From: a virus
Lineage: Duplodnaviria > Caudoviricetes
Length of the DNA: 63,726 nt
Reading direction: 5' to 3' (one strand)
Virus record (IMG/VR): IMGVR_UViG_3300025598_000038
Coordinates: 1 to 63,726 of that record
The notes beneath the pieces are model-generated. The model did not search any database. It was given only the letters and a program-made list of their open reading frames with translations, and was not told the origin of the DNA. The translations under genes were made by a program, and so were the position numbers. Below are positions 6,011 through 47,758 of the stretch, piece by piece. Position 1 is the stretch's first letter. Each line of letters starts with the position of its first letter.

Positions 6011-6343
6011 TTACTTCATGCCCATTTCCACGGTATGCGCCTTCGGCTCCGTGCCCTTGTGGGCCGTGAACGCAAAGATGTTGCCAGAGGTCTTGCCGCC
6101 ATGCTTGCGCGGCTTACGGCCAGCGTGATGCTTGCCGTGATGACCTTCGACCATCATCTCGTGCTTAGGCGCCTTACCGCCGTGCTTACGCTTGGCGCGA
6201 CCACCATGCTTACGCTCTTCGGCTTCCTTGTCGATTTCCTTCGCATTGGTGCGCGGTTCAGGACGGGTTTTGAGGTCCATCTCCGCTTCGTTGACACCAA
6301 CGTGGCCGCCTTTGGCCTTGTGATGCTTCTTATGACCTTTCAT
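6011..6343 (-). CDS. Small basic His/Lys-rich protein with repeated RKHGG motifs (putative internal core protein)
   Basis: 110 aa with KAKGG and RKHGG x3; GGAG RBS upstream; shares HHAGRKPRKxGGK with 11155..12381. Confidence 0.7.
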   Translation of the reverse strand: MKGHKKHHKAKGGHVGVNEAEMDLKTRPEPRTNAKEIDKEAEERKHGGRAKRKHGGKAPKHEMMVEGHHGKHHAGRKPRKHGGKTSGNIFAFTAHKGTEPKAHTVEMGMK

Positions 6344-6355
6344 ATCATGCTCCCA

Positions 6356-6841
6356 TTAGGCCGCGTATTGGCCGTTGGTGTAACCGTTAGCCGCCTGCAG
6401 GTACTTGACGATGAGAACGCCAACACCCGCTGTACCAGCGGTAGAACTCACAACGACCTGCTGGTCTTGCGTCGAACTCACGTTATTCCAAACACCAACC
6501 TGAGTTGCAGTGGTCGGAGTAACAGAGTTCTGGCCTACGCCGGGCGCCGTGACAGCATTCGCAAACGCCGTTGCCGTACCAGCAACGCCAATCTGCAAGT
6601 TCCCGCCCGACCAAGCAGTCGTCACGTTGACATACATGCTGGTGATAAGGCTATTCGCAGGAATGACGATAGTCGTAGCAACAGAAGAGGTCGATTGCGT
6701 GATAGGCGCAAACTGCACCATCTCCGCAAAGCCCACGTTCTGCGTGCCGGAACTACCACCAACGCCAGCAAGGTTGCCCGTGCCGTCGCTGTTGAGGACG
6801 TTACCTGCAAGTAGCGGACCCGTAAAAATAGTCGATGACAT
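6356..6841 (-). CDS. Capsid decoration/cement-like protein
   Basis: 161 aa immediately downstream of the major capsid gene, AGGAG RBS; N-terminal T.FTGP motif and jelly-roll-like IPANS.IT...V...W pattern. Confidence 0.55.
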   Translation of the reverse strand: MSSTIFTGPLLAGNVLNSDGTGNLAGVGGSSGTQNVGFAEMVQFAPITQSTSSVATTIVIPANSLITSMYVNVTTAWSGGNLQIGVAGTATAFANAVTAPGVGQNSVTPTTATQVGVWNNVSSTQDQQVVVSSTAGTAGVGVLIVKYLQAANGYTNGQYAA

Positions 6842-6886
6842 ATTTGTCTCCTAAGAATGGCCCCCATTGCTGGGAGCCTTTCCGTA

Positions 6887-7801
6887 TTACGAGGTCGGGA
6901 ACGAACCGTAAATCGAGCGCCAGTTGTAGTACCCGAAGGAGTACCGCTCGTAGCCCTTGACCAACAGATTGTCCGTAACGAAATCGACCTGCATGTCCGT
7001 TTCAAACTTGACGCGCTCCATGTACGAAAGGCCGTCAATGTTCGTCAGCAAGTACCAATAGAAGGACGAGGTCAAGAAGTCATTGACCATGTAGCCTTCC
7101 GGCAGGCCGCCAGCCGTCGTAAGGATTGCGTTGACGTCGTTGTCTGCAGTACCCGGACGCAATTCCGTCTTCAGAAGACGAATTGCAACAGGCTCCAACT
7201 GCGGAGGAACGATCAACTTACGACCACGAGCGAAGACCTTGAGGTTCGCCATGTCGCGGAAGTTGGTGCGGATCGCAATCATCGCGTTCAACAACGTCGC
7301 CTCGTTGAGGTCAACGTCAGTCGTCGGCTTGTTCGCGATCGTATTGCCGTCGATCGGGTGAGATGTGCTGCACAAGGCAACACCGTCACCGCCGATATTC
7401 GGGTTATACGTCGTCGCCGTGTTGAGGATGTTCGCCGCGTAAATTTCCTTGGTCTGCTGGAAAGATTCAATCAGACCGAGGTTAGACGGGTGGAACTGCG
7501 TCTTGTACAAGTTGTCGTCAATCGCTTTGCGCGTAATCGCGTAACCGAGAGCGATTTCCGAGTGCTCTTGGTTGTACACGAAACGCTCACCAGCGCCGTT
7601 GTCGAACGACGTCTGAGCGCCTTCCGACTTCAACTGCGCGAGGCCGAGGTAACGCATTTCGGCGGTACGCTCGAGGGCGAGTTTCGAGTCATGCTTGGTG
7701 AAGATCTTGTCGTACTGAGATGGGATCATCTCATACTTGCCTTCTACACCACGAAGTCCCGGCAGCAGGAGGTCTTTAATAGCACTTAAATTAACGGCCA
7801 T
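6887..7801 (-). CDS. Major capsid protein (Mu gpT-like, HK97 fold)
   Basis: 304 aa; LLLPGL N-terminus, GGDGVALCSTSHP, KLIVPPQL, C-terminal ERYSFGYYNWRSIYGS; position after scaffold. Confidence 0.9.
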   Translation of the reverse strand: MAVNLSAIKDLLLPGLRGVEGKYEMIPSQYDKIFTKHDSKLALERTAEMRYLGLAQLKSEGAQTSFDNGAGERFVYNQEHSEIALGYAITRKAIDDNLYKTQFHPSNLGLIESFQQTKEIYAANILNTATTYNPNIGGDGVALCSTSHPIDGNTIANKPTTDVDLNEATLLNAMIAIRTNFRDMANLKVFARGRKLIVPPQLEPVAIRLLKTELRPGTADNDVNAILTTAGGLPEGYMVNDFLTSSFYWYLLTNIDGLSYMERVKFETDMQVDFVTDNLLVKGYERYSFGYYNWRSIYGSFPTS

Positions 7802-7814
7802 TTTTAGTTACTCC

Positions 7815-8798
7815 TTAGACGCCGTAGGACTGCTTCAGCATCGCATTGTTGAATGCAACAACGATGCGGTTGTAAGCAGAGGTGTAGTCGTTGCCGTTGA
7901 TCGACTGAAGCGGGTTTGAACCGTCAGGCGTGTAGTTGGCAAGGGCGACAACGCGGAACGGGAGAAGCGGCTGATAGCCGCCCGGCGTGCTCAGAGAGTA
8001 CTGATCCGCGTAGGCGGTCGAAAGACCCGTGGCAGTGTTGCCGTTGGTCAAGCCAGTAACCTGAGTGCCCGACGTGTTGTAGTAGTTGCCGTACACAAAT
8101 CCGATGTTCTGGCCGATGTTGGCAATACCAACAGCAGATGACGTCGTATTCGAGTTGGCGGTCTGCACAACGAACTGAGCATTCGGGTCGTTGACCACGT
8201 ATGCCGTGACGTTTGCGTTGGTGTTCGCATCCGAGCCCGGCCAGTAGTTCGACCAGACGGTGCGCTTCTGAGCGACCGACAGGTACTTGCAGCCGACAAA
8301 AATGCCAGCAACCGGAACGTAGATGGTGACAGTACCAAACGTGGTGGACGTGACCGAAGCCGGGCCCGCGTTACCGCTGCTGTAAATCGCAACAGCCGTC
8401 GTCGTGGTGGACGAGGTTACCGTGTAAACGCCGTTCAGCGTAACCGGAGCCGCGCCAGAGACAACAATCTGCGAACCAACCGGAGGAGCCCACGCATTCG
8501 GCGTAGACGGCAGCGTGCCGCTATTGGCCGGGGTGGCCGCCGAGAAGGTGATGGTCGCAACACCGCCAGCAGACGTAACAATGCCGCCAGTCAAGCCAGT
8601 CAACGTGACCGGAGCATATGCCTGCGTAATAAGGCCCGTGCCGACGCCCGTGGCGCTGGCGGCCTGCATTACCGGATCACCAAAGAAAATGCCGCCAGTG
8701 TTCGACGGCGAGATCGCCATCTGCACTTGCTCATAGGTCGGGAGCGAACCCGTACCCGTGTACTGACTAAAACCGAAAGGCGCTGAAGTATTCGCCAT
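7815..8798 (-). CDS. Head structural/decoration protein preceding the capsid gene
   Basis: MANTSAPFGF...IFFGDPV...GIFVGCKY...YWP...AYVVNDPNAQFVVQ pattern typical of the gene upstream of gpT-like capsids; AGGAG RBS. Confidence 0.7.
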   Translation of the reverse strand: MANTSAPFGFSQYTGTGSLPTYEQVQMAISPSNTGGIFFGDPVMQAASATGVGTGLITQAYAPVTLTGLTGGIVTSAGGVATITFSAATPANSGTLPSTPNAWAPPVGSQIVVSGAAPVTLNGVYTVTSSTTTTAVAIYSSGNAGPASVTSTTFGTVTIYVPVAGIFVGCKYLSVAQKRTVWSNYWPGSDANTNANVTAYVVNDPNAQFVVQTANSNTTSSAVGIANIGQNIGFVYGNYYNTSGTQVTGLTNGNTATGLSTAYADQYSLSTPGGYQPLLPFRVVALANYTPDGSNPLQSINGNDYTSAYNRIVVAFNNAMLKQSYGV

Positions 8799-8893
8799 GA
8801 CGGATTCTCCTTACAGGAGGCCATCATCGCGCACCGGGGCGATTTAGACCGGGGGTTTTCTGCAACTCCCACGCCGGGCAGGAGGTTAAGCGG

Positions 8894-8922
8894 AATTTAC
8901 CCCTGCATATTAACAAGCGCAA
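8894..8922 (-). promoter_or_regulatory. Sigma70-like promoter for the capsid operon
   Basis: Minus strand TTGCGC-17 bp-TAAATT just downstream of a terminator; predicts a ~90-nt structured leader. Confidence 0.5.
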
Positions 8923-8929
8923 CAACACT

Positions 8930-8956
8930 AAAGAAAAAGCGCCCCGTAGGGCGCTT
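8930..8956 (-). terminator. Rho-independent terminator
   Basis: AAGCGCCC-TACG-GGGCGCTT (cUACGg tetraloop) plus T-tract on the minus strand after 8977..9591. Confidence 0.8.
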
Positions 8957-8976
8957 AAAAAGGCATTTACCGCCTA

Positions 8977-9591
8977 TTATTCTGGGATTGGAATGGCTTC
9001 GTAGGATTTTTTGACGCTGGCAAGACTGCTGCCGTCGCTCTTCTTGCGCTGAAGCGTGCCATCTGGCGCCGAGTTCAACTGCTCTTCCTTCTGACGAACC
9101 TGCTGGCGGGCGCGCCGCAAGTCAGCGGCACGTACTTCGTCCGTAATCTCTTTCGGACGTTCCATCAGAATCATGCCTTTGCGCTCAATCACGGCAAAAT
9201 TGCCCGTGCTGGGCATCATTTCAGGATGGCGATCGGCAGGAACGGCTTCCCATCCGTTACGGGCCAACTGGACCTGATACGCCGGATCTTCCTGCCCAAG
9301 CAGCAATTTGCGTTTCCATTCGTAGTCCCAGCCGTCCGGGATGATATCGAGAGGGATATAGAACTCGTCAGTCCCCTCGTCCATGGCGCCACGGTGCTCG
9401 CGCAATTCCGCCGCACGGCGGGCAGCGCGGTCACGCGGATTTTCGCGCAGTGGAGCACGCGGGATAGAGGCAGGCGCCTCCTCCTGAGCAAGGATGTCGT
9501 CAATGCTTTCGGACTCCACCTCGTCGATGGCTTCCATCAGGCGATTGTGCCGGGCTCTCTGGCGCTTTTCTTTCGGTGTTTCGGTATCCAT
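8977..9591 (-). CDS. Conserved head-module hypothetical protein
   Basis: 204 aa; IPDGWDYEWKR...GWEAVP...GMILMERP family commonly found between scaffold and capsid genes. Confidence 0.7.
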   Translation of the reverse strand: MDTETPKEKRQRARHNRLMEAIDEVESESIDDILAQEEAPASIPRAPLRENPRDRAARRAAELREHRGAMDEGTDEFYIPLDIIPDGWDYEWKRKLLLGQEDPAYQVQLARNGWEAVPADRHPEMMPSTGNFAVIERKGMILMERPKEITDEVRAADLRRARQQVRQKEEQLNSAPDGTLQRKKSDGSSLASVKKSYEAIPIPE

Positions 9592-9600
9592 AGTGATTCC

Positions 9601-10491
9601 TTAGTTCAATTTGCCTTCGCGCTGGAGAGCCAACTTGTTCTTGGCGTACTCCTGATCGGTCATACCCATCATCTTGGCCATCTCGCGCTCGTCCGAAGTC
9701 AAACGGACCACGTTAGAACGGCTTCCAGTGCCCGCAGTGCCGCTGCGCGAGACAGGGGCTGCTGGAGGTGCGGTACGGCGCTGCGTGACCTTGGCAGCGT
9801 CCGCAGAGGCGTCAGCGGCAGGCGCTGCCTCTTTGCGAACCCGCAAAGTCAGTTCAATCGAATCAAAATAGTCGTCAGTGTCGGCCGTCAGCCCGTCCGC
9901 CATTGCCAATTCGTGCGCCGCAATCATCTTGCGGTACAGATTGGGGTTGCGGGCGTACTCAGGGTGGGCGCGAACCCACTGCGCCGATCGAGGCGACAAC
10001 TGTGAGGCCAACGCCTCTACCGGGTCACTCTGGACCGGGTCCGGCGCCTTCTGCTTAGGCGCCTGTTCCATCGCCTGCTTGCCCTGCTCCAACTGCAGCA
10101 ACTTGGCAGAGTTCTCCGCCATGGTCTGCTGGATGTCGGCAGCGGCGTCATAGTCACCCGCAGCCATAGCCTGCGAGTACGCAGCCTTCAGGTTCTGCGT
10201 ATTTGCCTTAACGGTGTCGATTGCGTTGTTGATCAGGTGCAGATTGGTGTCTGCAACTTCACTCTGAGCCTTAAAAGCGTTCTGCTTGGCCTCGTTTGCC
10301 GCCTTTTCGGCTGCAATACGCGCCGCACGCTCGTCTTCCAACTGCTTTTTCAGCGCTTCAATGCCATCTTCGGGCAAAAGTTCAGCCTTTTGAGGCGTTT
10401 CTTCGGCCTTTACGACCTCAACTTCGTCCTTTTTGACGTCTTTTTCAATCGGATCGATCTCAATCTCAATCTGTTCCGGTTCATCAGCCAT
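9601..10491 (-). CDS. Capsid scaffolding protein
   Basis: Acidic N-terminus, long coiled coil, C-terminal VRLT..E..MAK.MGMT..EYAK motif; start reassigned to MADEPEQ (ATG 10491, AAGGGG RBS). Confidence 0.75.
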   Translation of the reverse strand: MADEPEQIEIEIDPIEKDVKKDEVEVVKAEETPQKAELLPEDGIEALKKQLEDERAARIAAEKAANEAKQNAFKAQSEVADTNLHLINNAIDTVKANTQNLKAAYSQAMAAGDYDAAADIQQTMAENSAKLLQLEQGKQAMEQAPKQKAPDPVQSDPVEALASQLSPRSAQWVRAHPEYARNPNLYRKMIAAHELAMADGLTADTDDYFDSIELTLRVRKEAAPAADASADAAKVTQRRTAPPAAPVSRSGTAGTGSRSNVVRLTSDEREMAKMMGMTDQEYAKNKLALQREGKLN

Positions 10492-10501
10492 GATTGCCCC
10501 C

Positions 10502-10894
10502 TTACCAGACCAAATCTGGGTGTGAAACACGTCCGCGCACGTTCTCATCCTTCAGGATGCGGCACAAAATGCCGTTAACAGTGATGCTCCAGCCGTCTGA
10601 AGGACGAAAAACGATCCAATCGCCCGTCGTAACGCTGACGTCTTTGAACCAAACACCGCTGTCATCGACAAAAGCATCAGGTCCAACCTTCAAAATGAGG
10701 CCAACCTTGCTCTGATGGCGGTCTTCGTTGCGGTGCTGGTCCGGCAAAACGATGCCGCCCTTGGTTTTTTCCGGCCGGATGTAGACGGCACACAGGATCT
10801 GATTGTGGTACAGGTCCAAACCGTCGATCGAGCCTACGGCTTTGATCAGATCTTCTTTCGGGTCGGTATCGTGTTGCATAGGTGTATGCGGCAT
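10502..10894 (-). CDS. groES: Phage co-chaperonin (GroES/Cpn10-like)
   Basis: EKTKGGIVLPD mobile loop, VGLILKVGP, GDWIVF, RILKDENV motifs. Confidence 0.85.
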   Translation of the reverse strand: MPHTPMQHDTDPKEDLIKAVGSIDGLDLYHNQILCAVYIRPEKTKGGIVLPDQHRNEDRHQSKVGLILKVGPDAFVDDSGVWFKDVSVTTGDWIVFRPSDGWSITVNGILCRILKDENVRGRVSHPDLVW

Positions 10895-10905
10895 AGGTAC
10901 TCCAA

Positions 10906-11106
10906 TTACAATTTATCGACTATAGAGCGGGCTTCATCGCACAAATCGTCAAGTTTACGCCACGCCGCGAGTTGCCCCGTGAGGTGTTTGTAGTCTGCGA
11001 TTTCGTGAATACTTGCGCCTGACTTGAGGATTTCGGTCAAGCGTTCAATCTCTTCTTGAACCAATTTCTTCAATTCGTATTCAAATCGAATGCTGATCGT
11101 TTGCAT
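10906..11106 (-). CDS. Small helical hypothetical protein
   Basis: ORF with DYKHLTGQL motif, the small gene usually found between portal-region genes and GroES. Confidence 0.6.
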   Translation of the reverse strand: MQTISIRFEYELKKLVQEEIERLTEILKSGASIHEIADYKHLTGQLAAWRKLDDLCDEARSIVDKL

Positions 11107-11120
11107 AGGTAGGTCCAATC

Positions 11121-11148
11121 AAAAGGGCGGCCATTTCTGACCGCCCTT
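11121..11148 (-). terminator. Rho-independent terminator
   Basis: AAGGGCGGTCA-GAAA-TGGCCGCCCTTTT on the minus strand right after the stop of 11155..12381. Confidence 0.7.
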
Positions 11149-11154
11149 ATATCA

Positions 11155-12381
11155 TCAAGCAGGCTTCAGGCCGTACGCCTTAACCTTTTCAAGCCGTCCC
11201 TTACCGCCACCCGAAGCGTGGTGAATCGGGTAGTGAACCCGGCCACCGCGCTTGCGGCCCATGGCGCCCGGAGGCGGAGCCATGGGCGGAGCGCCAGCGC
11301 CCGGAGGCGGCATCGGAGGGCGCATGCCGCCCGGCGGCATGCCGGGAGGAACGCCCGGGGGAACGCCCTGATGAAGACCCCCCGCAGGCGGCGGGGGCGG
11401 CATCATCCCGCCTGCCGGAGCCTGATGACCGCCGTGCGGCGCGATGACGATGTTGATGTTCGTCTTCTTGGCGCGACCGCCGTGCTTGCGGGCGTGACGA
11501 CCGCCAGTCGGGCGCGTGCCCTCTAAAGTGCCGTCAGAGACGCTGCCGCCCTTCTTCTTCGCCATGCCGCCGCCGCACTTGGCGCAACGGCAACCCTTCG
11601 GATGCACTTTGCCGCCGCGCTTCATGCCCGACGAGTCATCCGACATGGTGTCGTCGGAACCGCTGTCGTCCGAGCCAAGCATCTGCTGCTTCGCGCCCGA
11701 CTTCGGCGGAGGCGGCGGGGGAGCGGCCTTCGGCTTCTTCGGGGCGCCCGGCGCATTCGGGTAGTCCTTGTAGTAACTGTGCCCGTGCGCGAACTGGTAG
11801 TCGTTCAGGAAATCATCGCCCGGAGCGTCCGTGCCGCCGCGAGCCTTGTGGGCGCGGCCGCCGTGCTTCTTGCCCGGCTTGATGGCGTCCTTTTTGACGA
11901 CCTCATGGATCAGTTTCTTGTCTTCTTTGGCGTCGTCGTGCTTAACCTTGCCGCCGCGCTTGCGAAATTCACCGGCCAACACGCCGCCCGGCGCGTCCTT
12001 GTCCGGCAGCACGCCCAGAGCGCCGCCGCCCAGTTTGTGCGCCTTGCCGCCGCGCTTCATGCCGCCGACGTGCTTGGTGCCTGCGCGACCCTCGTTGGCT
12101 TCCTTCATGTCGCGGTTCAGGAGGCTGTCCGCCGTCAGCGCCTTGCCGCCGCTCTTGCGGGGCTTGCGACCGGCGTGATGGTGGGCGTGCTCGCCCTCAA
12201 CCTTGCCGCCGCGCTTGAACTGGCGACGGGAGATCGGGCGCAGGCCCGTCTTGGCTTCTGCCTCTAGAGGTTCTGCCTGTTTAAAGTCACTGGCGTCAAC
12301 CTTGCCTTCGTCGTGAGTGCGGCTGTAGCGCTTGGCTTTCGCCGCACGCTCTTCCCGCGCCTTTTTGGCTAATTCGGACAT
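11155..12381 (-). CDS. Basic low-complexity protein with about 12 [KRH]xGG motifs (putative internal core protein)
   Basis: 408 aa, Lys/Arg/His/Gly/Pro-rich; FKRGG, RKSGG, MKRGG, RKRGG, KKHGG, KARGG etc.; GGAG RBS. Confidence 0.75.
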   Translation of the reverse strand: MSELAKKAREERAAKAKRYSRTHDEGKVDASDFKQAEPLEAEAKTGLRPISRRQFKRGGKVEGEHAHHHAGRKPRKSGGKALTADSLLNRDMKEANEGRAGTKHVGGMKRGGKAHKLGGGALGVLPDKDAPGGVLAGEFRKRGGKVKHDDAKEDKKLIHEVVKKDAIKPGKKHGGRAHKARGGTDAPGDDFLNDYQFAHGHSYYKDYPNAPGAPKKPKAAPPPPPPKSGAKQQMLGSDDSGSDDTMSDDSSGMKRGGKVHPKGCRCAKCGGGMAKKKGGSVSDGTLEGTRPTGGRHARKHGGRAKKTNINIVIAPHGGHQAPAGGMMPPPPPAGGLHQGVPPGVPPGMPPGGMRPPMPPPGAGAPPMAPPPGAMGRKRGGRVHYPIHHASGGGKGRLEKVKAYGLKPA

Positions 12382-12401
12382 GTCAGTCTCCTGCGGGGGG
12401 T

Positions 12402-15400
12402 TTACCGCGCTTTTGGTTTTGTCAAGTGTGCGACCATACGGAGGGCATGGTCAACAAGACCTCCGCCCGCCTTCGGCATTAACTTATTTCGGGCGGCTGA
12501 CACGTCTTCTGGAGAAACGCCGTAGGCCTGTGCCTGCTGCGGCGTCATGTTCATTACCCCAGTAAGTGTTCGTGTGAACCTGTCGGCAGGGCGTGCTTGA
12601 CTATCATCTCGTACGCCCCCTCGATTTCCGCGTCCGTCACCTTGTCCGCTGACTGGCGCTTCTCCACCAGATAGTTGAGTTCCTTGTTCAGGAGCCCCAC
12701 TTGCGGATCGGACATCCGATTTACCGTCTCCCGGCCTAGAACCCGCACGGCTCTGTGCGAGATACTTTCGTAATGCGTCTTGTCGATCTTCATCTTTTCC
12801 ATCCCATTTCATAATGGACACAGAAGGCATTCCCATCGACTCGTCCCACCCGGTGGAACGCCAGTAATGCTTCAGGTCCTCAAGTTGTTGATCGGTAGAA
12901 TATTGTGGGTCAAACGGAATACGTCCTAACTCTTTAAAACCAAACTGCCTGTAAAACGATGGCAAAAAGCCATCCGGGTGTTTTTTAGATGGTACAGCAT
13001 ATGCGTCTAAGGCAGTAGCACCCTCTTTAATTGCTTTTAGCATGACCGAAGCGCCGCCAACCCCCTTGGCGCCCGGCTCATTGTTTACAACGCTGACCAA
13101 AGCGGTCTCATTAGGAGTCAATTCTGGGTGTTTAAACCCATATTCCTCCTCGTAATTTGTTCCGTGCTTCAGGCCAAAGTACACGTCGCCACTGGGTAAC
13201 TTAAACGCCCTGAACTTCTTCTTCTTGACCATGTCCTTGATTTCCTTCTCAGAATACTGAGTAAGGGTCGAGGAGGCTTCAGAGTTTTTTAGGGCTTTAG
13301 ACATCTCAGCAGGCGATACGCCGCCATGCCCAACGGGCGTTTCTGTATTAGTCCAACGGTCATGGGCGACATCAAGAGCCATACGGGCTGCTTGGGGGGA
13401 CTGCACGTCCATTGGATGACTAGGCAGGTTGTCGGCAATTGCCTGAGTAACCGTGGTTGTCGGCAAAGCAAGATCAAACCCGCGCAAAATTTGCGCCGTG
13501 TCTGCTGCAGGATTTGAAGACTTACCAGACGCTTTCTTTGCTGCTCGTTTTTGATCAAACCAGTCTTTCCACAAGGTCTCTGCAGCAAAAGGATGGTGGA
13601 ACTTGCCAACAATCCGACCGCGAATACCTAACGGATAGGACTCATGCGGAGTGAACCCTGACTTAACCAAATCGGCAACGCCCTTGTCTCCCTTTTCCAG
13701 TTCCAACAAGTACATCACGTCGCCACGGTTCAGACCCGAGAACCGAGGGTCTATCGTCTCTCTGGCAATTTTTTTGACGCTAGGAGCGCCTAATTTTTGC
13801 GCTCTTGCACTATGTAAAATTTTGGAAATCCGATCACGGCTTTCAAAGTTTAAAGAGTCAACGTAATTGTGAATATTTTGGTGTGCAAACCCCGGGAAGT
13901 CTTGCAAGACGCTAAGTTTCTTGTTCTTGGATTGCGCCCTGATCAGGGCATCAATTTGATCAAGGTTTTCTTTTGGAATGCGCTTGTCTCTAGCGTGAGC
14001 AGCCATTGTTCCAATCAAAGCACGGGCAAACGACGAATTAGATTCATGCGTGTTAGGCATCATCGCGGTGACAGCGGCATAGTCGGCATTCTTATTCAAT
14101 TTGAACGTGCCGCGTCCTTTACCTTTAATAGCCCACCCCATGCCGCCACGCTGATTCTCTTCAATCAATGGGAATCCCGGGCCGCCGCGCATAGCAACAG
14201 GCTTAGTTAACTGACTGGAATCAATTCCCGTGTAATCAGGCCCGGTCTTTAAAAGATCGGCCCGAATTGGAAAAATTCTTTTCCCAACGAGATCTTGCGG
14301 ATTGATCGTTGGCACTTCATCCCATGAAGAATAGATAGGTCGATCAACCTGCACTGACGACGCTTCATCTGCGGGGACAACTTTCTTTTTCTTAGGCGCT
14401 CCGCCACGCGCATATTTTTCTTCGCTCGAAAATGGAATGCCTGCGGCCCGCATAACATGTACAAGCGGATGATCAATCAAAGGATTGTCTTTGATCTTGC
14501 CGCCGGTAGCAGCGTGCTGCATGGCGTGAATGACGTCAGAATGCGTCGTCTGATCGTTGCCAACGGCGTCCCAGATGGTGTGATGTGCGAGGTGCTGATA
14601 GTAAGGGGCAAGACCTTCCGGCGTCGTGAGGTTCATCGCCCGCTGCCTTGCGGCAAGGCGTTCGACGGCCTCCGCGCCGCCAAGCCCGCTGCGCCGGGCG
14701 ATGTACGGTGCCGCCTGCTTTGACGGATTTCCGGTGTGAAGGACGATCTGCCTTGCGTCGAGCGTCGGCTGATCGCCTCGACCGAGCAGGGACGCAATGA
14801 ACCCCGCCTTGCTAGGGCCGACGCCGCGCACGCCTTGAATAAAGTCGCGCCATTCGGATGGGCTGCTTGTCCCCTGCTGTGCCTGAGCGACCAGTCGAGA
14901 CACGTCGCCCTCACGGCCCGGCAAGTTTTTCGCCGCCCACTGCAGCGCGTCTGGGATGTCCGTCGTGTGGCGGCCAAACGGCGCCATGATCTGCACCGCG
15001 TTGCTGATCGAATGGGGGTCGATAATGCCGCGCTCCGCGTGCTGCAGGTAGCGCTGACCCATCGGCGTGTGCAGCCACTCGCCAAACGCGCCTTCTGGGC
15101 GAACCTTGGGCTCGTTGTGGTTGGGCAACGCCAGTCCGGCGGCGCGAACCTTGTCAGAATCGACGGCGCCGCGCTGAATGCTAGCGCGGGTGATCGTGTA
15201 CGCCTTGATCAGGTCACGCGGCGTGAGGCCTACAGTGCCCGCCTTGTTTGCCGTGTCGTCCATAAAGCGACCAAAGGTTGCGACATGCGACGGGATTTCT
15301 TTTGTGTCGCCCAACTGCGCCTGCACGTCCTTAAGCGGACGCCACTTCCAGTCCTCAATGGCGCTCGTCTTTGGGTCCTTATAGCCGCCGCGCTTCATGC

Positions 15401-19040: not shown

Positions 19041-19042
19041 CG

Positions 19043-21466: not shown

Positions 21467-21467
21467 G

Positions 21468-21737
21468 TTAGCACTTCACGTCCCAGCGCTTGAGCGCCAG
21501 ATTGATGCGGCTGTTGGGGTCGTGCGCGGTCTTGGCTGAAGTCAGTTTTTCCTTCATGCCACACATACGCGAGCGAAAGTTATCGCGGCGGGCGGATGCC
21601 TTTGGGCTATGCGCCGCTTCAGAAGCGCGGACGGGTTTCTTGATGTCATGACCTTCTGCACGCAAAGAGGCCCGACCTTTCTCATTCAGACCGCCGGAAG
21701 GTGACTTACCTTCCTTCCTCGTCCACGCTTTAGACAT
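21468..21737 (-). CDS. Small basic conserved phage protein (DUF6321-like)
   Basis: AWTRKEGK.P.GGLNEKGR...DPNSRINLALKRW motif. Confidence 0.7.
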   Translation of the reverse strand: MSKAWTRKEGKSPSGGLNEKGRASLRAEGHDIKKPVRASEAAHSPKASARRDNFRSRMCGMKEKLTSAKTAHDPNSRINLALKRWDVKC

Positions 21738-37890: not shown

Positions 37891-37954
37891 TGGATTGGGC
37901 GTTGTGCCCGAAGGCAAGTAGCAGGCCAGACTGCTGCATTTTGGAGAAACGACA

Positions 37955-38599: not shown

Positions 38600-38648
38600 T
38601 CTTCGCAGGCGGTGGGGGACGGCCCTCACCGCCTTATGGAGACTACCG

Positions 38649-38876
38649 ATGCGATTCCAAATCACGTTGAACATGCCCTCGCGGGCTCAAAGCCTTGTCC
38701 ATCAAGTCATCGGCGATGCCGATGTCGATTCTTTTGAAGAATTCATTCAGTTGTGTAACGACAACCCGTTCATCATCGTCGAAGAAATCTACAAAGACGG
38801 CATGAGCACTAAGTCGGTTGGCCCGATGGGCATCAACACCGCGCACATTGGCAAGATCAAAGAGTTCACGCCTTAG
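38649..38876 (+). CDS. Hypothetical protein
   Basis: MRFQITLNMPSR...HIGKIK; GGAG RBS; last gene of the plus-strand operon. Confidence 0.6.
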   Translation: MRFQITLNMPSRAQSLVHQVIGDADVDSFEEFIQLCNDNPFIIVEEIYKDGMSTKSVGPMGINTAHIGKIKEFTP

Positions 38877-39334
38877 GTCAGCAGGACAGGCACGGAAGCG
38901 CCAACAGTCGTGCCAAACAGCGTCGTGGTGTCGGATCGAGAGAACAGATAGCGCGTGTTGGCCACATTCGCTAACACCGCGTTGTCGAATGTTGCCGTCG
39001 GCGATGTCATGGTCACGCCCGCCACCGTCAGCGTGCTGATCAGCGTGGTGTTGTTCCCCGCGACGTAAACGTAGTAGCCCGAAGCGCTGGTGGTGCTTGC
39101 AGGCGTGCTGACCGACGCAATTCCAAGAATCTGCACGCCGTTGATGTAAAGTGGTGACGGAATGACGCTACCAGCCACGGGGGAGTCTGGGTAGTAGATG
39201 CTCCCGCTGCCAGAGATGGTGCTCCATCCCCACCATGTCAACGTGCTGCGTCCCGTTGTGGTGGTCATGGTGCCGACAATCACCGACACGTTGATGCCGC
39301 CCAAATAGCCTAGAGTGCGCGTCGCGAAAGTCAT
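38873..39334 (-). CDS. Tail-fibre-associated/adhesin-like protein
   Basis: Thr/Ser/Gly beta-rich; ATGA-coupled to the tail fibre gene. Confidence 0.55.
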   Translation of the reverse strand: MTFATRTLGYLGGINVSVIVGTMTTTTGRSTLTWWGWSTISGSGSIYYPDSPVAGSVIPSPLYINGVQILGIASVSTPASTTSASGYYVYVAGNNTTLISTLTVAGVTMTSPTATFDNAVLANVANTRYLFSRSDTTTLFGTTVGASVPVLLT

Positions 39335-40587: not shown

Positions 40588-40595
40588 TGCGACTC

Positions 40596-42965
40596 CTAAA
40601 TTGCGTCCTGCGCGACCTTCAGCGCCTGCACGATATGCTCGTCGGGCGAATCGAGAAGCGGCTTCGTAGTCATGTCAGTCAGTTTCTTGGCCTGCTTATA
40701 GCGGCTCATGAGGCGTTGCACCAGCGGCTCAATGTCGTTCAGGCGGCCACCGGAAGCGCGGCCAACACGGCCGCCTGTAGCACGGCCTGTGACGCTATGA
40801 ACGTAATTGCGCGTCTCTTCCGGCAAGTGCTCAAGAAAGTCTTTGCCGCTGAAATGCGCGTCTGCCAAGGCATCTTTAACGCGCTGAGGTCCAGCGTTAT
40901 ACGCCGCAACGGCATGACGCTCATCGCCAAACATGTCCTTGAGGTGCTCAAAATACGCTTTGCCCAATTTCCGATTGTAGTCAGCGTCGTTGCGGAATCG
41001 ATTTTCATCCCAGTCTTCGCCCGCAAGGCGCGCGGCTTCAGGGCCAGTACCCGGCATGATCTGCGCGGCACCGATGGCACCAGCCGACGACGTTTTCGGA
41101 TTTCCCTTTTCGTCGAACTGCTTATTGTTACTTTCCTGATGAAGAATCTTCGAGTACGTGTCTGCGCCTTTGTCAGGCGCTGCAGCAGGGGCCTCAGAAA
41201 GTGCTTCTGGCTCGTTCTCGCGTTCCGCATTGCCTGCGTAGTAGGTCGAGTTCTTTGGCAATGCCTTTACAACCTTGGATACGGCTCGAGAGGCTGGCGC
41301 AATGCCAGTCAGTGCGCCTAAACGGCCAGCGCCGTAGTTCAAAGCACCAACAACCTTGGGTGAACCCGCAATCATCGTAGCGGCGCCAACAACGGGATGC
41401 ACGCCGTGACCCAGAATCGAGCCAGCGATCATGTCTTGAATTGTGTGCGTGACGCCTGCCGTGGCCGGATTCACCGCATGGCCTGCCAACATGGCGGGCA
41501 ACGTCGGTTCGTACTTGGCCATCCTCTCGAGCATGTTGACGCCCGTGGTGTCTTTGATGGATCGCAGCGCCTTTGCCATCGACGCCGTGGCGCCCGTCTT
41601 GTCTCCGCCGATGAGCAACTTCTTGGCGTCATTCACGCCGCTCATGGCAGTCGAGTACTTTTCCATCAAATCGTCGTAAGCCGGGTCGATTGCGCGAATG
41701 GACCCTTTGACACTGTTGTAGATGGCGCCCAGATGGCGTTGCGCGGCTGGATTGTTCGTTCCATTCATCAGGTCGCCGATAGCCTGCTTCAGGTTATCGA
41801 AACTGTGAATCGTCGGCTGAACAGGCGAACCGCCATTCACGCCATACTTGTGTTCTTTGACAAGTTGTTCGACCTGATCAATCGCAGAATTGGCGTTTTG
41901 AAATGCGGCTGATCCGGGACCTGCCAATTGAGTTTCTTGACGCGCGGCCGCTATCGCGTCTTCGACAGGTTGAAAACTAGGCGCTCCCGGCTGAAGAGAT
42001 CCTTTTTTCCGAATGTAATCATTAACGGCAGCCTGCTTATCCTGTTTAAGCGCGCTTTCTGACTTGGACACCCATTCAGTAGGATCGCCCTCTCCGCGCG
42101 CAAACCGATTGTAGGCGTCACGCATGGCGTCGCCTGCTTTGCCCGTCATGGAGCCAATTTTGGTAGCAACTTGCTGCGCGTATGTAGACACACCGCTGGC
42201 CTTACTCATTGCGCCGCGCGCGATGTTGACTGGCAACTTCGCGGCGCCAACCGCCAACTGCCCGGCTCGAGCAACAGGGTTTAACTTATCGACGATCGAC
42301 GCTGCCTTTCCTGCAGCACCCGCAATCTTTTCAAGGCCAGCCACTTTGCCTACCGCTCCCGCTCCACCAAGGAACGTCGAAGCGTCCATCAGGATGCCTG
42401 CAGGATCTTCGGCAAGTGCTTTTTTGAAGCCAGCAATCGATCCATATACGTTCTTGTAATGGTCTTCAAGCGCGCCGATCAGTTTCTCGTCTTCGGGATT
42501 GTGCTCGAATCCCATCGCGCCCTTAGCCTGCGAATATCCGCCGTATGCGATCGCCGCCAGCGCCTTGGCCGTGTCGATAGGGTGCAAGATGCCGCTGGCT
42601 GCCGCATTAACGGCGCCAAATGCACTGGGAATGGCATTCGACAACGCTTTAGATCCCACTTCTCCCCAACTCATCTCAGGCTCACCCGGCGCCGATGGCG
42701 TTCCGGCTTGATGCCAAATCGTCTTATTGCTCTTGGGCTTTTCTCCGCCTTCGCTTCCCGGAGGTGCAGGGTCACCCGCCAACCTCACGCCCTTAGCGCG
42801 AAGGCTTTGAAGGCTCTTCTGATAATCCTCATCAGACAAATCGCCCGGCGCCTTCGGCTGCACAGGCGCTTGAGCCGCTGGCGCGACGGGCTCTTCAGGC
42901 GACGGTTCTGGAGGAGCCCCGTATCGAGCAGCGTAGTCGTAGTCGTTGCTAGGATCGTACGGCAT
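40596..42965 (-). CDS. Internal virion/ejection protein with lytic transglycosylase (SLT) domain
   Basis: QES, SSAGAIGAAQIMPGT, AVAAYNAGP, PEETRNYV motifs near the C-terminus. Confidence 0.88.
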   Translation of the reverse strand: MPYDPSNDYDYAARYGAPPEPSPEEPVAPAAQAPVQPKAPGDLSDEDYQKSLQSLRAKGVRLAGDPAPPGSEGGEKPKSNKTIWHQAGTPSAPGEPEMSWGEVGSKALSNAIPSAFGAVNAAASGILHPIDTAKALAAIAYGGYSQAKGAMGFEHNPEDEKLIGALEDHYKNVYGSIAGFKKALAEDPAGILMDASTFLGGAGAVGKVAGLEKIAGAAGKAASIVDKLNPVARAGQLAVGAAKLPVNIARGAMSKASGVSTYAQQVATKIGSMTGKAGDAMRDAYNRFARGEGDPTEWVSKSESALKQDKQAAVNDYIRKKGSLQPGAPSFQPVEDAIAAARQETQLAGPGSAAFQNANSAIDQVEQLVKEHKYGVNGGSPVQPTIHSFDNLKQAIGDLMNGTNNPAAQRHLGAIYNSVKGSIRAIDPAYDDLMEKYSTAMSGVNDAKKLLIGGDKTGATASMAKALRSIKDTTGVNMLERMAKYEPTLPAMLAGHAVNPATAGVTHTIQDMIAGSILGHGVHPVVGAATMIAGSPKVVGALNYGAGRLGALTGIAPASRAVSKVVKALPKNSTYYAGNAERENEPEALSEAPAAAPDKGADTYSKILHQESNNKQFDEKGNPKTSSAGAIGAAQIMPGTGPEAARLAGEDWDENRFRNDADYNRKLGKAYFEHLKDMFGDERHAVAAYNAGPQRVKDALADAHFSGKDFLEHLPEETRNYVHSVTGRATGGRVGRASGGRLNDIEPLVQRLMSRYKQAKKLTDMTTKPLLDSPDEHIVQALKVAQDAI

Positions 42966-42969
42966 ACCG

Positions 42970-45900
42970 TTACCTGCCTAAGATGTATCGAGTGATTCCG
43001 CGAGCGTTGTGATTACGCTCCCAAGCCTGAATTTCTTGCTGACTAAACGAGCCGTTAAGAACGCCCTTCAGAAAGTTATTGTCTTCCAAGGCAGCCGTCA
43101 GTTTGTCCTTGTCAGGGAAATAGTGGTCGTCCGACCCGTCACGCTTTCTAAACTGCCTGTCAGCACTGCGAGCATTAAAACTGTACGGGCTCTTTGAATA
43201 ATTCCTTGCATCGCGGACGTAGTCTTCTTTGTCCAAATCTTTTTGCTTTTCGAGCATCAAAGAGGACAGCATCGAAAGGGCCGTATGACGATCTAGATTT
43301 GTACCCGGAACGCCAGTGCCTGCTTCCATTAAAGACTGCAGCGAATGCTGCTGGCTATCGCTGGCAAGGTTAAACCGCAACGCAGCAGAAATTTTATCTG
43401 CCATCGTATGGTTTGTGATGTCACTTTGATCTGCAACCAACTCAGGGTGTCCGCCCATCTTTACAAGGTCATTGTAATAGTTGAGCGCGGTTGCTCTGAT
43501 GTCCGAAAACGGACCTGAATGCAAGAACGTATTGTCATCGATTCCGCTAATCGATGAAGCCAGCGTCGTTAAATTAGAGCCATGACGCCTGCCAGCCTCT
43601 GCTTTGGCAGAAATGGAATTTTCAAAATTATCTGAATCAGTCTTATTGCGCTGAAGACTCGCGGCACCCATCGATCCCGGACCACGCATGAAATTCTGCG
43701 CGTCGAGATCCATTTCGGCTCGAGCCTCAGGAGACACCAACGGCCTGCCGTTTATGTTTGTAGGCTGGTACGCAATGGGAGACACGGGCTTTTGCGGAGG
43801 CGCGTTGATAACTTTCCCTGCGGCAAGTCGATTCATTCCAGCAACGGACTCTGCAGAACCCCATGTGGCAGGCTGCCCCATGTCCATCCACTGGCCATAA
43901 GGCACCCAATTGCCTTGCGCCAATCGTACAAGACCCTTATTCGTATCGATCGCATCAGCCGAAATATTGTTAGTGCGGATTGCGTTCTCGATATCGATTC
44001 CGCGATTCTGCGCTTGCTGAGCCGTGATTTCGGCCTGCTTCATTTGCGTCGGCAGATACGACTGAACGCCAGCGTTCACCCCATACGCGAGCGCATTGCC
44101 CAAATGCTGAGTGGGCGCATTGATTGCCGCCGTGACGCCCGTTGCAATCGGGATGATCTTGCTAGGATCCCAATTGCCTTTTTCATCTTTGAACAGCCTG
44201 CTAATAATTCCGGGATGCTGCTCTTCTGGAGCGACTGACGGATTGCGCGGGGTTGCGTTCAACTTGTCAATCATCGAAGGATTGGCAGACACGGCCGAAC
44301 TTTGTGGAGCAGGTGGAGCCAACCCAGTCGCGGTGGTTTCATCGGCGGGCTGTGCGGCCACTGGCTTCTTTTCAGGCGCAGGCGGGCCTTCGCCAACAAA
44401 ATTCGGCGATGCCGGGCCTACAAAAGATGATGTTCCATAAGACTCAGCAGGCGGCGGTGCCGCAGGAGATGCAACAGGCGCGAGTTTTGGTTTCAATCCC
44501 GGCTTTGGATAAAAGCGCGCTTCATCTTCCTTGTCCTGCCTAACCATTGTTTCATGAGCGGTTTCAGGACGAGATGTTGCTGGAGTCGATTCTTGTTTGC
44601 CCGCCAACCCCTGCTTAAGGGTGTCAAACGGATGCATAAACTGATTGAGCGACGGCATGTCGAACCAGCCCAAAGGCTTATCTTGTGGCTGATCGCTATT
44701 GGGCATGTCAGGCAGCGGGTCGCTGCTATCCCAGCCACCTCCATCGCCGCTAACGACACCCGCCTTGTCTTTGTGAATCCGACCGCCCTCAGCCCGGCGC
44801 AGCCCTTCAAGTGCCGCGCGAATTTGTGGATGCATGGGGCCGCCAACTTCTGCCTTTCCAGCGCCCTGCATCATCGGACGCGGCATTGCGAGACCCATAT
44901 GAGGCGCCATAGCCGGGTTAACGCCCGGAACGCCGCCGTAGGCGTGACCTTCGCGCTCAATGGCTCCGCCGCGAGCAGCAAACAAAGCGGCTACCTGAGC
45001 GATGGCTTTAAGATCTTGTGCGTTTTGATCAGTCGGAGGCGCTGCCGAATTCATGGACGGCAATTTCGCCTGAGACGTTTCCTCTGGAATGTCGAGTCCG
45101 GTTTCGCCGCCGTCCGCATATCCAGCAAGTCCGCCACGCGCTAAAGTTGGCGGGTCATTTGCAACGGAAGGCATTCCGCCAAAATTTACAACATTCTGTG
45201 CCGCATCAGCCGTTTCGGGATTAATGTCTCCAATGTTCCCTTGGAAATTTTTAATATCCCGGCCAGCCTGATAACTGTTGTAGGCATTTTTGGCCGAATT
45301 GTAAATGTCCTGACCCTTTTTCCAATCTTTATTGAGCCCTTCAGCCAAATCGTTCATCGATTTAACTTGATCCGATGCGCTCTTCGGTTGAGGCATGCGC
45401 GGATTGTTTGGCGTGAGCATATGCGGAATGGCGTTGCCGCTTTGCGGGATAAGGCCCTGAGTTCCGCCATACGGCGCGTTGCCTTTGCTGCCGTAGAAAG
45501 TCGCGTGCGCGTACGGCGCATTCGATTCAAGGCTGGACTGCTGGGCTTGCAGAATGGCGTTGAAATCAACAGGAGAAACGCCTGAAGGAGTCGCCTGAAC
45601 GCCGCCATAGGCAAAGGGCTCACGTACTCCACTAAGGCCAACCAGCCCACCCTGACTTGTAGAGCCGCCGTGAGCATGTCCTTCGCGCTTAATGGCGCCA
45701 CCTCGCGCGGCAAAGAGGCCGCCCGGCGTCGTGGTCGTCTGCGTCTGCCCGGACAGCGCGCCAATACCTTCGACAGCGTTTGTGTAGAACTGCGATGCTT
45801 GGAAGGGAAAGGCTTCTGCCATGTTGAATTGATTGTAGAGCGCGGCGTCCTGCGCCTGCTGAGTCTGCTGCTGCAGCGTACCTGCACCGATCTGCGCCTG

Positions 45901-46647: not shown

Positions 46648-46648
46648 G

Positions 46649-47146
46649 TTAGTGCTCCGTGCCCTGCCACTTGCCAGTCTGGGCGCCATACAGGAAGAAT
46701 GCGCCGCTAGGTGGGCCAAATTGCCGCTCGTACATGCGGACCTTAGCCGAGGTACGATGGTTTGACAAAACGCCGATGATCAACGGAATTTTCAGATGGT
46801 CGGCGACTTTCTTGCTGAACTCGCACAACTTAGACGCGCGACCGCCCTTTGCGTTGCGAAATTCCGGGTGAATGAAGATGGCCTTTTCTTCGACGACTTG
46901 ATAGTCGGAGTACCACATAGAACCAATCCGAAGCAGAACGGCGCCTTCGATCTTGCCGCCCGGCGCGCCAATAACCGCGCAGAGGCCATGATCATTGTTC
47001 AAGGCAGGCCAGATCTCAGCCGCCATCTTCAGCGGATTCGGATGCAAGAACCCATTCTCTTCGCACGCCATCAGAGCGATGTTCATGATTTCATCAAGGT
47101 CCTGAGGGCCCGCGAGACGAATCTGAAGTTCAACTGGATCGGTCAT
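46649..47146 (-). CDS. GNAT-family acetyltransferase (virion module)
   Basis: IRLAGPQD N-terminus, FIHPEFRNAKGGRASKL acetyl-CoA motif. Confidence 0.75.
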   Translation of the reverse strand: MTDPVELQIRLAGPQDLDEIMNIALMACEENGFLHPNPLKMAAEIWPALNNDHGLCAVIGAPGGKIEGAVLLRIGSMWYSDYQVVEEKAIFIHPEFRNAKGGRASKLCEFSKKVADHLKIPLIIGVLSNHRTSAKVRMYERQFGPPSGAFFLYGAQTGKWQGTEH

Positions 47147-47149
47147 GTC

Positions 47150-47758
47150 TTAATCCCTTTTAGGTCCGGGCAATTTAGATAAAGTCTTAATCGTATTCTT
47201 TCGCATTTCCTTGACCCATGCGTCGAGAACCTTATGTCCACGGTCAAGATCTCCGTCGCCTGCTTCGATCACTTGGTGCGGGGCGAGGACGTATTCTCCG
47301 CCTGCGGCGACGATGGGCACTCCTCCATCTGTTGCGCCGCCAGCCGCACGATGAGGCATTTCAGCGCCATAAGGACCGCCAGACTGACCATAAGGCGCGG
47401 ACCCTCCGCCATAAGGAACTCCTCCAAAAATGCGTTTCATGTGTTTGAAGCCAGCGATCGTGTTGCCTTCGCCCATGGCCGAAATGATGTCGGCAGGAAT
47501 TACATAAGCGCCACTAGGCACATGCATAGGCAGATGATCAGTACGGCCCGCCACAGAACTATGAATTGGTCCCACGTGAAGTTTTCCCCCACCAGAAGCA
47601 GCAGCATGTTTAGTAGGTAAGCGTAAGCCACCGCCCGCTGAACTGCGGGCCGTAGCAAGCGCCGCAGCAATAGCCTGATCTTTAGGGTGACCCGCATGGA
47701 TCATCTCCGCGATGTTGTGGCTAATTGTCTTCTGACTTTTACCGTGAGTAAGAGGCAT
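47150..47758 (-). CDS. Conserved virion-module protein with G-R-T-D...G-x-YV domain
   Basis: MPL..GKSQKTIS.NI.EM..AG.P..QAIAAAL; GPIHSSVAGRTDHLP..VPSGAYVIPADIISAMGEGNT; VPIVAAGGEYVL. Confidence 0.7.
   Translation of the reverse strand: MPLTHGKSQKTISHNIAEMIHAGHPKDQAIAAALATARSSAGGGLRLPTKHAAASGGGKLHVGPIHSSVAGRTDHLPMHVPSGAYVIPADIISAMGEGNTIAGFKHMKRIFGGVPYGGGSAPYGQSGGPYGAEMPHRAAGGATDGGVPIVAAGGEYVLAPHQVIEAGDGDLDRGHKVLDAWVKEMRKNTIKTLSKLPGPKRD

Follow-up and report, generated by a model that had tools for sequence, protein, structure and literature searches.

A conserved Gly-Gly motif at module borders of putative ejected proteins in an aquatic podophage: a candidate processing signal

The adenovirus protease adenain recognises sites of the form (M/I/L)-x-G-G↓x, and pS273R of African swine fever virus (ASFV) cuts at G-G↓x, in both cases in core proteins and polyproteins. 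Here, we describe a computational analysis of a Gly-Gly motif, generalised as G-[YF/RK]-[AK]-x-G-G-x-[VI]-D, that recurs in six proteins of a podophage with an SU10-type portal; its complete IMG/VR virus record (IMGVR_UViG_3300025598_000038, 63,726 bp) is the whole stretch of DNA analysed and is called the window below. As with adenain and pS273R, a short Gly-Gly motif is found in several presumed internal virion proteins and polyproteins, small basic DNA-associated ones included; unlike their sites, the motif of the window has strong preferences at +2 (V/I) and +3 (D). The analogy with the two enzymes, drawn in an earlier note on this DNA, is not borne out, since P4 is Ala/Lys instead of Met/Ile/Leu and the window has no detectable protease gene, of clan CE or otherwise. 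Sequence comparison shows the motif to be a genuine short linear signal, conserved and placed at the module borders of putatively head-internal or ejected cargo proteins. Trans-cleaved junction sites are, in our view, its best reading, which we put forward tentatively.

Several phage and bacterial systems bear on this reading. In T4, the capsid-targeting sequence is cut by gp21 (L/I-x-E), and the prohead protease of phiKZ and SPN3US (S/A/G-x-E) processes internal head proteins. The window resembles these phages in that a short consensus delimits leaders of probable head-internal, ejected proteins and one code extends over many cargo proteins; it departs from them in the motif itself, in the additional internal and C-terminal positions of the mark, and in that no protease was found here, whereas those phages encode one. 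Encapsulin cargo-loading peptides are short Gly-containing terminal peptides that target cargo to an HK97-fold shell, and double-glycine bacteriocin leaders are N-terminal, amphipathic, 15-30 amino acids (aa) long and end in G-G. The window consensus differs from both, and no C39 peptidase was found in the window. Peptidase_S74 (hereafter S74) is an intramolecular chaperone and self-cleaving module of endosialidase tailspikes that also occurs internally in eukaryotic MYRF. In most homologues of the ejection protein of the window, S74 occupies exactly the junction where the window has Gly-Gly elements and splits the polyprotein at a defined Ser-Asp bond; there it is a folded, self-acting domain of ~75-95 aa, as opposed to a 7-aa motif.

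The 20-aa N-terminal leader of the P22 ejection protein gp7 is reported to be removed by the host enzyme OpdA (PMC8402733), which shows that a podophage with no protease of its own can make use of its host's. The gp7 cut falls just before KGGKGG in the sequence record; it differs from the window in being a single site, cut before K-G-G rather than after G-G, in a sequence outside [AK]-x-G-G. An oligopeptidase would not, moreover, be expected to cut deep inside a 2212-aa chain. Such a chain recalls the polyvalent proteins, which, as Iyer et al. (2017; PMC5512222) argued, need processing into units, a task that they assigned to MPTase domains; the word "glycine" has no match in the text of that paper. 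Like members of this class, the 2212-aa protein of the window carries ART-PolyVal and PcfJ in one chain, stands beside the portal gene among virion and late genes and is mosaic. Unlike in much of the class, MPTase (PF18818), which is frequent but not universal there, is absent, both from a six-frame search of the window and from 45 of 45 post-portal proteins of relatives. The SU10 paper reports five ejection proteins and has no match for the words "protease" and "cleav" (PMC9509320), and a pelagiphage preprint notes a GroES gene and few identifiable structural proteins (10.1101/2019.12.14.876532). A full-text literature search, confined to main texts, returned no published description of the Gly-Gly motif or of S74 modules in ejection proteins.

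Distribution of the motif

The earlier note had listed instances of the motif in six proteins, of 110, 408, 2212, 789, 1225 and 202 aa (Table 1), and all of them were found in place. We scored a loose pattern,.[AKS].GG, in each protein against 2000 composition-preserving shuffles. It has 53 matches in the six proteins (4946 aa) versus 28 in the 43 other open reading frames (ORFs; 13052 aa), and it accounts for 53 of 90 GG dipeptides in the former versus 28 of 118 in the latter. The 408-aa protein has 15 matches (3.4 expected), the 2212-aa polyvalent protein 12 (3.7 expected) and the 1225-aa ejection protein 12 (3.2 expected), numbers reached by 0/2000 shuffles in each case, and the excess extends to the 110-aa protein (4 versus 0.59, P=0.001) and the 202-aa protein (6 versus 1.3, P=0.001). 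For the 408-aa protein, in which about 12 copies had been noted, the loose pattern yields 15 when overlaps are counted, and the strict pattern defined below yields 10. Taken alone, the 789-aa protein is not significant (4 versus 2.5, P=0.25). Composition, which the note had named as the explanation that would undo its proposal, does not account for the motif frequency, the shuffles being exceeded in five of the six proteins, and the claimed lack of enrichment in capsid, terminase and replication proteins holds by the same test, as it does for the portal. Among the other ORFs, P<0.05 was obtained only for a GNAT-type protein at 46649-47146 (2 versus 0.31 expected) and a 32%-glycine ORF at 53778-54362 (8 versus 4.1), and the collagen-like Gly-rich tail fibres are depleted in the pattern (1 versus 7.4 and 1 versus 4.9 expected).

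A strict pattern, [FYHKRMLWIV][AK].GG.[VILA], was picked after seeing the data and has 22 matches in the six proteins versus 3 elsewhere (Fisher p=4e-10). The 789-aa protein has two of these (0.25 expected, P=0.02), and the 202-aa protein has none. Two residues before GG, the six proteins have Ala 29 times and Lys 17 times (46/90), Leu 3 times, and Met and Ile outside the six commonest residues; position +2 favours Val. Such preferences are not seen in the other window proteins. Applied unchanged to three related complete genomes, the strict pattern gave 14 matches in 4017 aa of homologues of the six versus 3 in 12720 aa of other ORFs, 18 in 5166 aa versus 0 in 12883 aa, and 11 in 3487 aa versus 3 in 16106 aa. 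From 174 distinct contexts in 53 post-portal large proteins (52 of relatives and the 2212-aa protein of the window), we obtained the extended consensus G-[YF/RK]-[AK]-[SDE]-G-G-[ED]-V-D, with conserved flanks at -3, -2, +2 (V/I) and +3 (D).

The enrichment has limits within the wider group. In Pelagibacter phage HTVC027P, no single ORF reaches P<=0.01, and contexts that look alike by eye are present (YADGGRIGF, KKADGGRIGY, MFRKGGNV). None of the 24 ORFs of Caulobacter phage RW is enriched despite a GroES gene and the same head module, so neither GroES nor the head proteins track the motif. The loose pattern is not enriched in phage SU10 ejection proteins gp20-23 (P>=0.5). SU10 gp24 (L100 25674-30095), a known ejection protein, has 6 loose matches versus 1.29 expected (P=0.002), in contexts that are mostly Ala/Gly-rich.

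In the 745 ORFs surveyed at related loci, proteins of this class begin with Met, an amphipathic helix and then the motif, with GG at residue 18-28 (compare the double-glycine leaders), and they end with the motif, a helix and the stop, for example FAQGGSVDENHPVVQRAMHLVRSFLLNG. The helix is always distal and the motif proximal to the body, an arrangement as in removable targeting peptides. A preferentially terminal location of the motif was considered and rejected: 4 of 472 matches lie within 10 residues of a C-terminus.

The earlier description of the six as internal virion proteins is best supported for three of them, by a PHROG assignment as DNA ejection protein (1225 aa), an SLT domain (789 aa) and a polyvalent architecture beside the portal (2212 aa); for the other three, the argument is one of position and shared elements. 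We presume that all six are virion-internal.

Module borders in the motif-bearing proteins

In the polyvalent protein, Pfam identified ART-PolyVal at residues 246-421 (E=5e-12) and PcfJ at residues 1006-1057 (E=8e-8), and the motifs, the first of which is at residues 39-45 counted from the predicted start codon, are placed at module boundaries. In eight ART-bearing proteins, a motif occurs 26-34 aa upstream of the domain in 6/8 and 9-18 aa downstream in 7/8. The protein shows mosaic homology to split ORFs of relatives, each of which retains at least one motif copy. The uncultured phage MW202675.1 splits the region into three ORFs, one of which ends HARGGVAK-stop, aligned with KAEGGEVD of the window at residue 430, while another starts right after the position of KATGG at residue 1197 (aligned from q1204); stand-alone ORFs of two related loci, L062 and L065, align from about q1202. 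Polyvalent proteins of relatives add LPD23, InPase, PBECR5, GP88 and cell-wall hydrolases.

In the junction at residues 1184-1221, the 22-residue helix between KATGG and MKRGG matches the N-terminal leaders of the stand-alone ORFs of relatives and resembles the N-terminus of the polyvalent protein itself, MIDPKAIKKALMTAKG; it is internal in the window lineage only and thus represents a single fusion event. The window reads KATGG/VVDPQKAIRR where the MW202675.1 ORF begins. A hypothetical cut behind G1197 would give the N-terminus VVDPQKAIRRAV, in register with the natural N-termini MIDPKAIKKAL (polyvalent protein itself) and MMHHDPQKAIRFA (relatives). A vestigial GTG start codon at this junction was considered and rejected, the codon being GTC. 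A ParB-type nuclease (GHEGRHR), an HhH-GPD motif (GVGPSKAGFIASLLGRGDQPTLD) and a GNAT loop, proposed by eye in the polyvalent protein (residues ~433-600, 1400-1430 and 1950-2080), were unsupported by Pfam at E<=1 in six segments; the sole HExxH of the protein is GHEGRH, and a PDB sequence search with the whole 2212-aa protein gave no match below E=0.78.

The most telling result comes from the ejection protein, in which the motifs cluster at residues 305-350, 500-515, 555-575 and 618-624, the first cluster directly at the end of an N-terminal domain (residues 1-311) that has 2374 homologues at E<=1e-10. We surveyed this junction in the best 120 of the 2374 homologues plus the window, using the end of the conserved GALSGSTTTTxQPGGFF as anchor; 114 rows were placed, and 7 in which the anchor was not found were left out. 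The self-cleaving S74 module (SDERLKE...) follows the N-domain in 105 of the 114 rows, Gly-Gly elements follow in 8, window included, and one row was mis-anchored. Pfam confirmed S74 at this junction in two related genomes, whereas a six-frame search of the window genome gave no S74 (PF13884, or an SDxRLKxx start). In the alignment, ~60 aa of S74 are replaced in the window by AARGGAIKREGHAHGG; these 16 aa duplicate the element at residues 555-574, an element that S74-bearing relatives have as well. In a quick maximum-likelihood tree, the eight Gly-Gly rows fall into three or more positions, and the clade of the window (SH-aLRT 97) is nested in a clade of support 100 with the S74-bearing P0244-P0247. 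As far as alignment and tree can tell, the Gly-Gly element has repeatedly taken the place of S74 at this one junction.

S74 modules are themselves bounded by the motif: [AK]xGG occurs 70-99 aa after the Ser-Asp in 118 of 124 modules, against a background of 0.005 per aa. By pattern, internal S74 modules number one in 100 of 121 homologues and two in 12 of 121 (P0244-P0361, L097:4906-9849, L096:7709-12988). With an internal S74 in most homologues, the family has the look of a polyprotein that splits itself.

The C-terminal tail of the 789-aa SLT protein is portable. It matches 528 cluster representatives at E<=1e-3, and the best 150 of these matches end within 10 residues of the C-terminus, in proteins of 60-1434 aa; GG is present in 150/150 and a double GG in 122/150. 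A 983-aa protein that is otherwise unalignable carries the tail at 84% identity. The N-terminus of the 202-aa protein matches PHROG 2423, and three homologues of this protein conserve RAAGG, RADGG, KAEGG, YAAGG and VAAGGE.

The two basic proteins share the element VEGxHxxHHAGRKPRKxGGK, which the 110-aa protein has in common with the 408-aa family. Among 8000 scored, 2854 homologues of the 408-aa protein were obtained at E<=1e-3, with a Pfam domain in 0 of the 120 homologues listed; tblastn with the low-complexity filter on gave MW202675.1 as the sole match. In a 22-member alignment, the GG motifs form invariant columns and keep strict positions across 35-60% identity, between spacers that differ widely in both length and sequence. 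An AlphaFold2 model from this alignment had a mean predicted local distance difference test (pLDDT) score of 51.5, with 237 of 408 residues below 50 and the motifs in coil. No PHROG or Pfam family matched the 110-aa protein, whose four motifs are all kept in 3 homologues from related contigs.

Genome context

The features discussed are collected in Table 1. The minus strand carries nearly all genes of the window, and Pfam and PHROGs also assign two SU10-type adaptors and the large and small terminase subunits. The nearest relative by portal is MW202675.1 (62% identity); more distant ones are Pelagibacter phages HTVC027P and HTVC023P and Roseobacter, Caulobacter and Planktothrix phages, and portal-based relatives also occur in 208 IMG/VR stretches. 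At the nucleotide level, megablast of window positions 11000-21500 against a phage collection gave no relative. Within the head module, the GroES gene has the cargo genes on one side and the scaffold-like gene on the other, an arrangement that recurs in HTVC027P, Pag-Yong1, Caulobacter phage RW and MW202675.1; the order GroES, scaffold-like, ~200-aa, ~190-330-aa and capsid is common to HTVC027P, Pag-Yong1 and Caulobacter phage RW.

Table 1. Positions of the motif-bearing proteins, their junctions and the head genes in the window (63,726 bp)
Feature	Position	Strand	Remarks
110-aa protein, basic, His-rich	6011..6343	-	four motifs: KAKGGHV, RKHGGRA, RKHGGKA, RKHGGKT
Head module	6887..10548	-	scaffold-like, 204-aa, 327-aa and major capsid proteins; without recognisable protease
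Major capsid protein, 304 aa	6887..7801	-	
327-aa protein	7815..8798	-	directly upstream of capsid gene
Conserved head protein, 204 aa	8977..9591	-	
Scaffold-like protein, 315 aa	9601..10548	-	
GroES homologue	10502..10894	-	mobile loop EKTKGGIVLPD; Pfam Cpn10, E=3e-9
408-aa protein, basic, Pro/Gly-rich, predicted disordered	11155..12381	-	15 loose, 10 strict motifs
Polyvalent protein, 2212 aa	12402..19040	-	directly downstream of portal gene, upstream of head genes; 12 loose, 5 strict motifs
C-terminal end of polyvalent protein	12405..12476	-	PKAGGGLVDHALRMVAHLTKPKAR then stop; motif, then terminal helix
Internal junction of polyvalent protein, residues 1184-1221	15378..15491	-	KANGGAI-IAKATGG-VVDPQKAIRRAVMVAEGMKRGG-YKDPK; leader-type helix between motifs
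ART-PolyVal domain, residues 246-421	17733..18395	-	between identical KAEGGEV motifs (216-222, 430-436)
SU10-type portal protein	19043..21466	-	Pfam SU10_portal, E=2.5e-16
Ejection-type protein, 789 aa	40596..42965	-	SLT transglycosylase domain, residues 622-704; Pfam SLT, PHROG endolysin-type matches
Portable 70-aa C-terminal tail of 789-aa protein	40599..40808	-	double motif RATGGRVGRASGGRL, then two helices ending DEHIVQALKVAQDAI
Ejection protein, 1225 aa	42970..46647	-	PHROG 4287, DNA ejection protein; 12 loose motifs
Junction 2 of ejection protein, residues 553-574	44926..44991	-	LFAARGGAIEREGHAYGGVPG; source-like copy of junction 1 element
Junction 1 of ejection protein, residues 305-350	45598..45735	-	PGGLFAARGGAIKREGHAHGGSTSQGGLVGL...FAYGG, in place of homologues' Peptidase_S74 module
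202-aa protein	47150..47758	-	N-terminal helical domain PKDQAIAAALATAR, then SSAGGG, later RAAGG, VAAGGEYV

Some neighbouring genes call for comment. The 327-aa protein has its ends in common with ~190-aa proteins of relatives, and its insertion resembles the C-terminal part of the tail fibre at 56650-58620 (26% identity, 250 aa); the protein may decorate the head and have borrowed this domain from a fibre. The GNAT-type acetyltransferase gene at 46649-47146 (weak Pfam match, PHROG 1249) sits amid the ejection-protein genes, a position kept in MW202675.1, and one of its two loose matches, NAKGGRA, resembles the usual acetyl-CoA-binding loop of the GNAT fold. An 89-aa DUF6321 protein is encoded at 21468-21737, and PHROG profiles place DUF6321 C-terminally on much longer phage proteins. 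The 32%-glycine ORF at 53778-54362 (194 aa) lies amid tail genes and has GGGG runs and a weak PHROG match to tail fibre assembly. A 127-bp terminal direct repeat (1-127 and 63600-63726) falls in a repetitive, partly collagen-like tail-fibre gene. Removal of one copy and circularisation yield a single open frame of 2222 aa on the minus strand, so ORFs 3-3053 and 59993-63724 are halves of one gene; the "terminal repeat" is probably an assembly overlap.

Cleavage, docking and other readings of the motif

In the reading that we tentatively favour, large cargo polyproteins would be cut in trans at the motif, while the head assembles, once it is assembled or following ejection. Cutting would release the effector modules from one another, strip the terminal amphipathic "leader" and "tail" helices, and reduce the disordered basic proteins of 408 and 110 aa to small peptides; it would be the work of a host enzyme or of an unrecognised phage protein, no protease being recognisable in the phage genome. 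We favour trans-cleavage because a cut after GG would regenerate natural N-termini, because a distal helix with a proximal motif mirrors removable targeting peptides, and because the lineages that lost the self-cleaving module gained canonical motifs at the same spot. Of the "processing code" proposed in the earlier note, what stands is the coincidence of the motif with ORF ends and starts of relatives, with the replacement of S74 and with the border between helix and body; cleavage, like its exact bond, timing and enzyme, is what we infer from this anatomy. A more ambitious version is only slightly less likely: throughout a large clade of aquatic podophages, a protease acting in trans would recognise a single Gly-Gly code of seven residues and cut the polyproteins packaged in the head into working units, stripping their targeting helices. 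The code would be interchangeable with S74 in evolution and replace MPTase, and its substrates would be the polyvalent, ejection and disordered basic "hub" proteins.

A series of results weighs against cleavage, several of which concern the enzyme. Pfam scans of the window ORFs gave no peptidase family, clan-CE and C39 included, and six-frame searches of the window for S78, ClpP, MPTase and S74 were all without match, in line with the earlier failure to recognise a prohead protease gene; a six-frame search for S77 was uninformative, as its control matched nowhere. Seven unassigned head and tail proteins had no Pfam match up to E 10, and the 45 post-portal proteins of relatives contained no peptidase family of the kinds sought. 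The modelled 204-aa head protein (pLDDT 71.7; 1567 homologues) had no Foldseek match in the PDB at E<=1e-3, and ESM-Atlas look-ups with the 204-aa and 315-aa proteins returned unnamed viral clusters only, the nearest named cluster of the 315-aa protein being a scaffolding family at 0.87, which serves as a lead only. The capsid protein is small and accompanied by a separate scaffold-like protein, and assembly of this P22/T7 type usually proceeds without a maturation protease. A host protease doing the cutting would need to occur in SAR11 and freshwater bacteria alike, and we know of none. The distribution of the motif adds to these points: it occurs in 31 C-terminal and 25 N-terminal windows of the 745 ORFs versus ~65 expected from mean density; some copies in relatives lie 2-6 residues from a terminus (HARGGVAK-stop, IFKNGGKK-stop, MFRKGGNVGT), where a cut would achieve little; and one relative, L062, has a leader helix without GG. 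Finally, the 408-aa family conserves motifs and not spacers, which also fits a multivalent binding array. Co-folding of the capsid and scaffold-like proteins with residues 40-125 of the 408-aa protein scored 0.00 without controls and is evidence for neither side.

Much of this would suit an uncleaved docking or hinge peptide that, alone or with the adjacent amphipathic helices, binds a repeated procapsid site (capsid inner face, scaffold or portal) or other cargo and thereby loads or positions cargo, akin to an encapsulin cargo-loading peptide, the flexibility of Gly-Gly letting modules move or unfold for ejection. Docking would explain most of the same anatomy. It requires no protease, and none was detected; it fits the leader without GG in L062 as well as the split ORFs, all of which keep at least one copy, some of the copies being at extreme termini where cutting would be pointless. 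Conservation of motifs rather than spacers, as in the 408-aa family, is a hallmark of multivalent short-motif arrays, the double-motif tail is a strongly conserved 60-70-aa unit, always terminal and on many different bodies, and a flexible hinge could stand in for a covalent break once S74 was lost. The preferences at +2 (V/I) and +3 (D) could equally belong to a structural or binding strand, although a hinge alone would not require conserved flanks at -3, -2, +2 and +3. No reader site was identified, however; the succession helix-motif at N-termini and motif-helix at C-termini is awkward for one binding mode and natural for cleavage; and the independent S74 losses each gained canonical motifs, not arbitrary linkers. 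We regard docking as the main rival to cleavage, if somewhat unlikely. An improbable alternative dispenses with a separate reader: the motifs would act as homotypic "stickers" through which the 408-aa hub and its client proteins condense into one internal body. Aromatic and basic residues beside Gly-Gly do resemble known low-complexity stickers, and the candidate hub, predicted to be disordered, has 10-15 copies versus 2-12 in the far longer client chains. Strict positional conservation over 35-60% identity exceeds usual sticker behaviour, however, and boundary positions, S74 replacement and terminal helices would be left unexplained.

Two further explanations carry very little weight. As mimics of the mobile loop of GroES, the motifs might draw host GroEL to cargo: their K-x-G-G-x-V core is like the corresponding loop in the phage's own GroES, whose gene belongs to the head module, and GroES is a hallmark of the wider clade. 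In E. coli GroES, it is the hydrophobic triplet after GG that binds GroEL, and this triplet is not conserved in the motif, where +1 is mostly K/V/R/G/A in the window and E/D/A/S in relatives and +3 is mostly D; the lack of enrichment in Caulobacter phage RW also speaks against mimicry, which we consider most improbable. We give still less credence to a functionless by-product of Gly/Ala/Lys-rich low-complexity composition. The loose pattern is admittedly permissive, as about a quarter of the GG dipeptides of other proteins fit it, the 789-aa protein is not significant alone and the Gly-rich ORF at 53778-54362 also scores, but the shuffle test, the depletion in collagen-like fibres, the invariance of the motif columns across families and the replication of the enrichment in three related genomes all contradict such an origin.

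Should the motif prove to be a code for processing or loading, a residue-level rule would be at hand to predict where injected effector modules begin and end in phages that are very abundant and for the most part uncultured. The families concerned are large, with 2854 homologues of the hub, 2374 of the ejection N-domain and 528 tail clusters, and the relatives include HTVC023P-type pelagiphages. Such a code would point to a reader, whether protease or docking site, and would make the handling of giant cargo by protease-less podophages testable; it would also offer a portable tag or junction usable for loading foreign cargo in phage heads. The repeated interchange of a self-cleaving domain and a short motif would, moreover, constitute a clean natural experiment on the way in which viruses switch between processing in cis and in trans.

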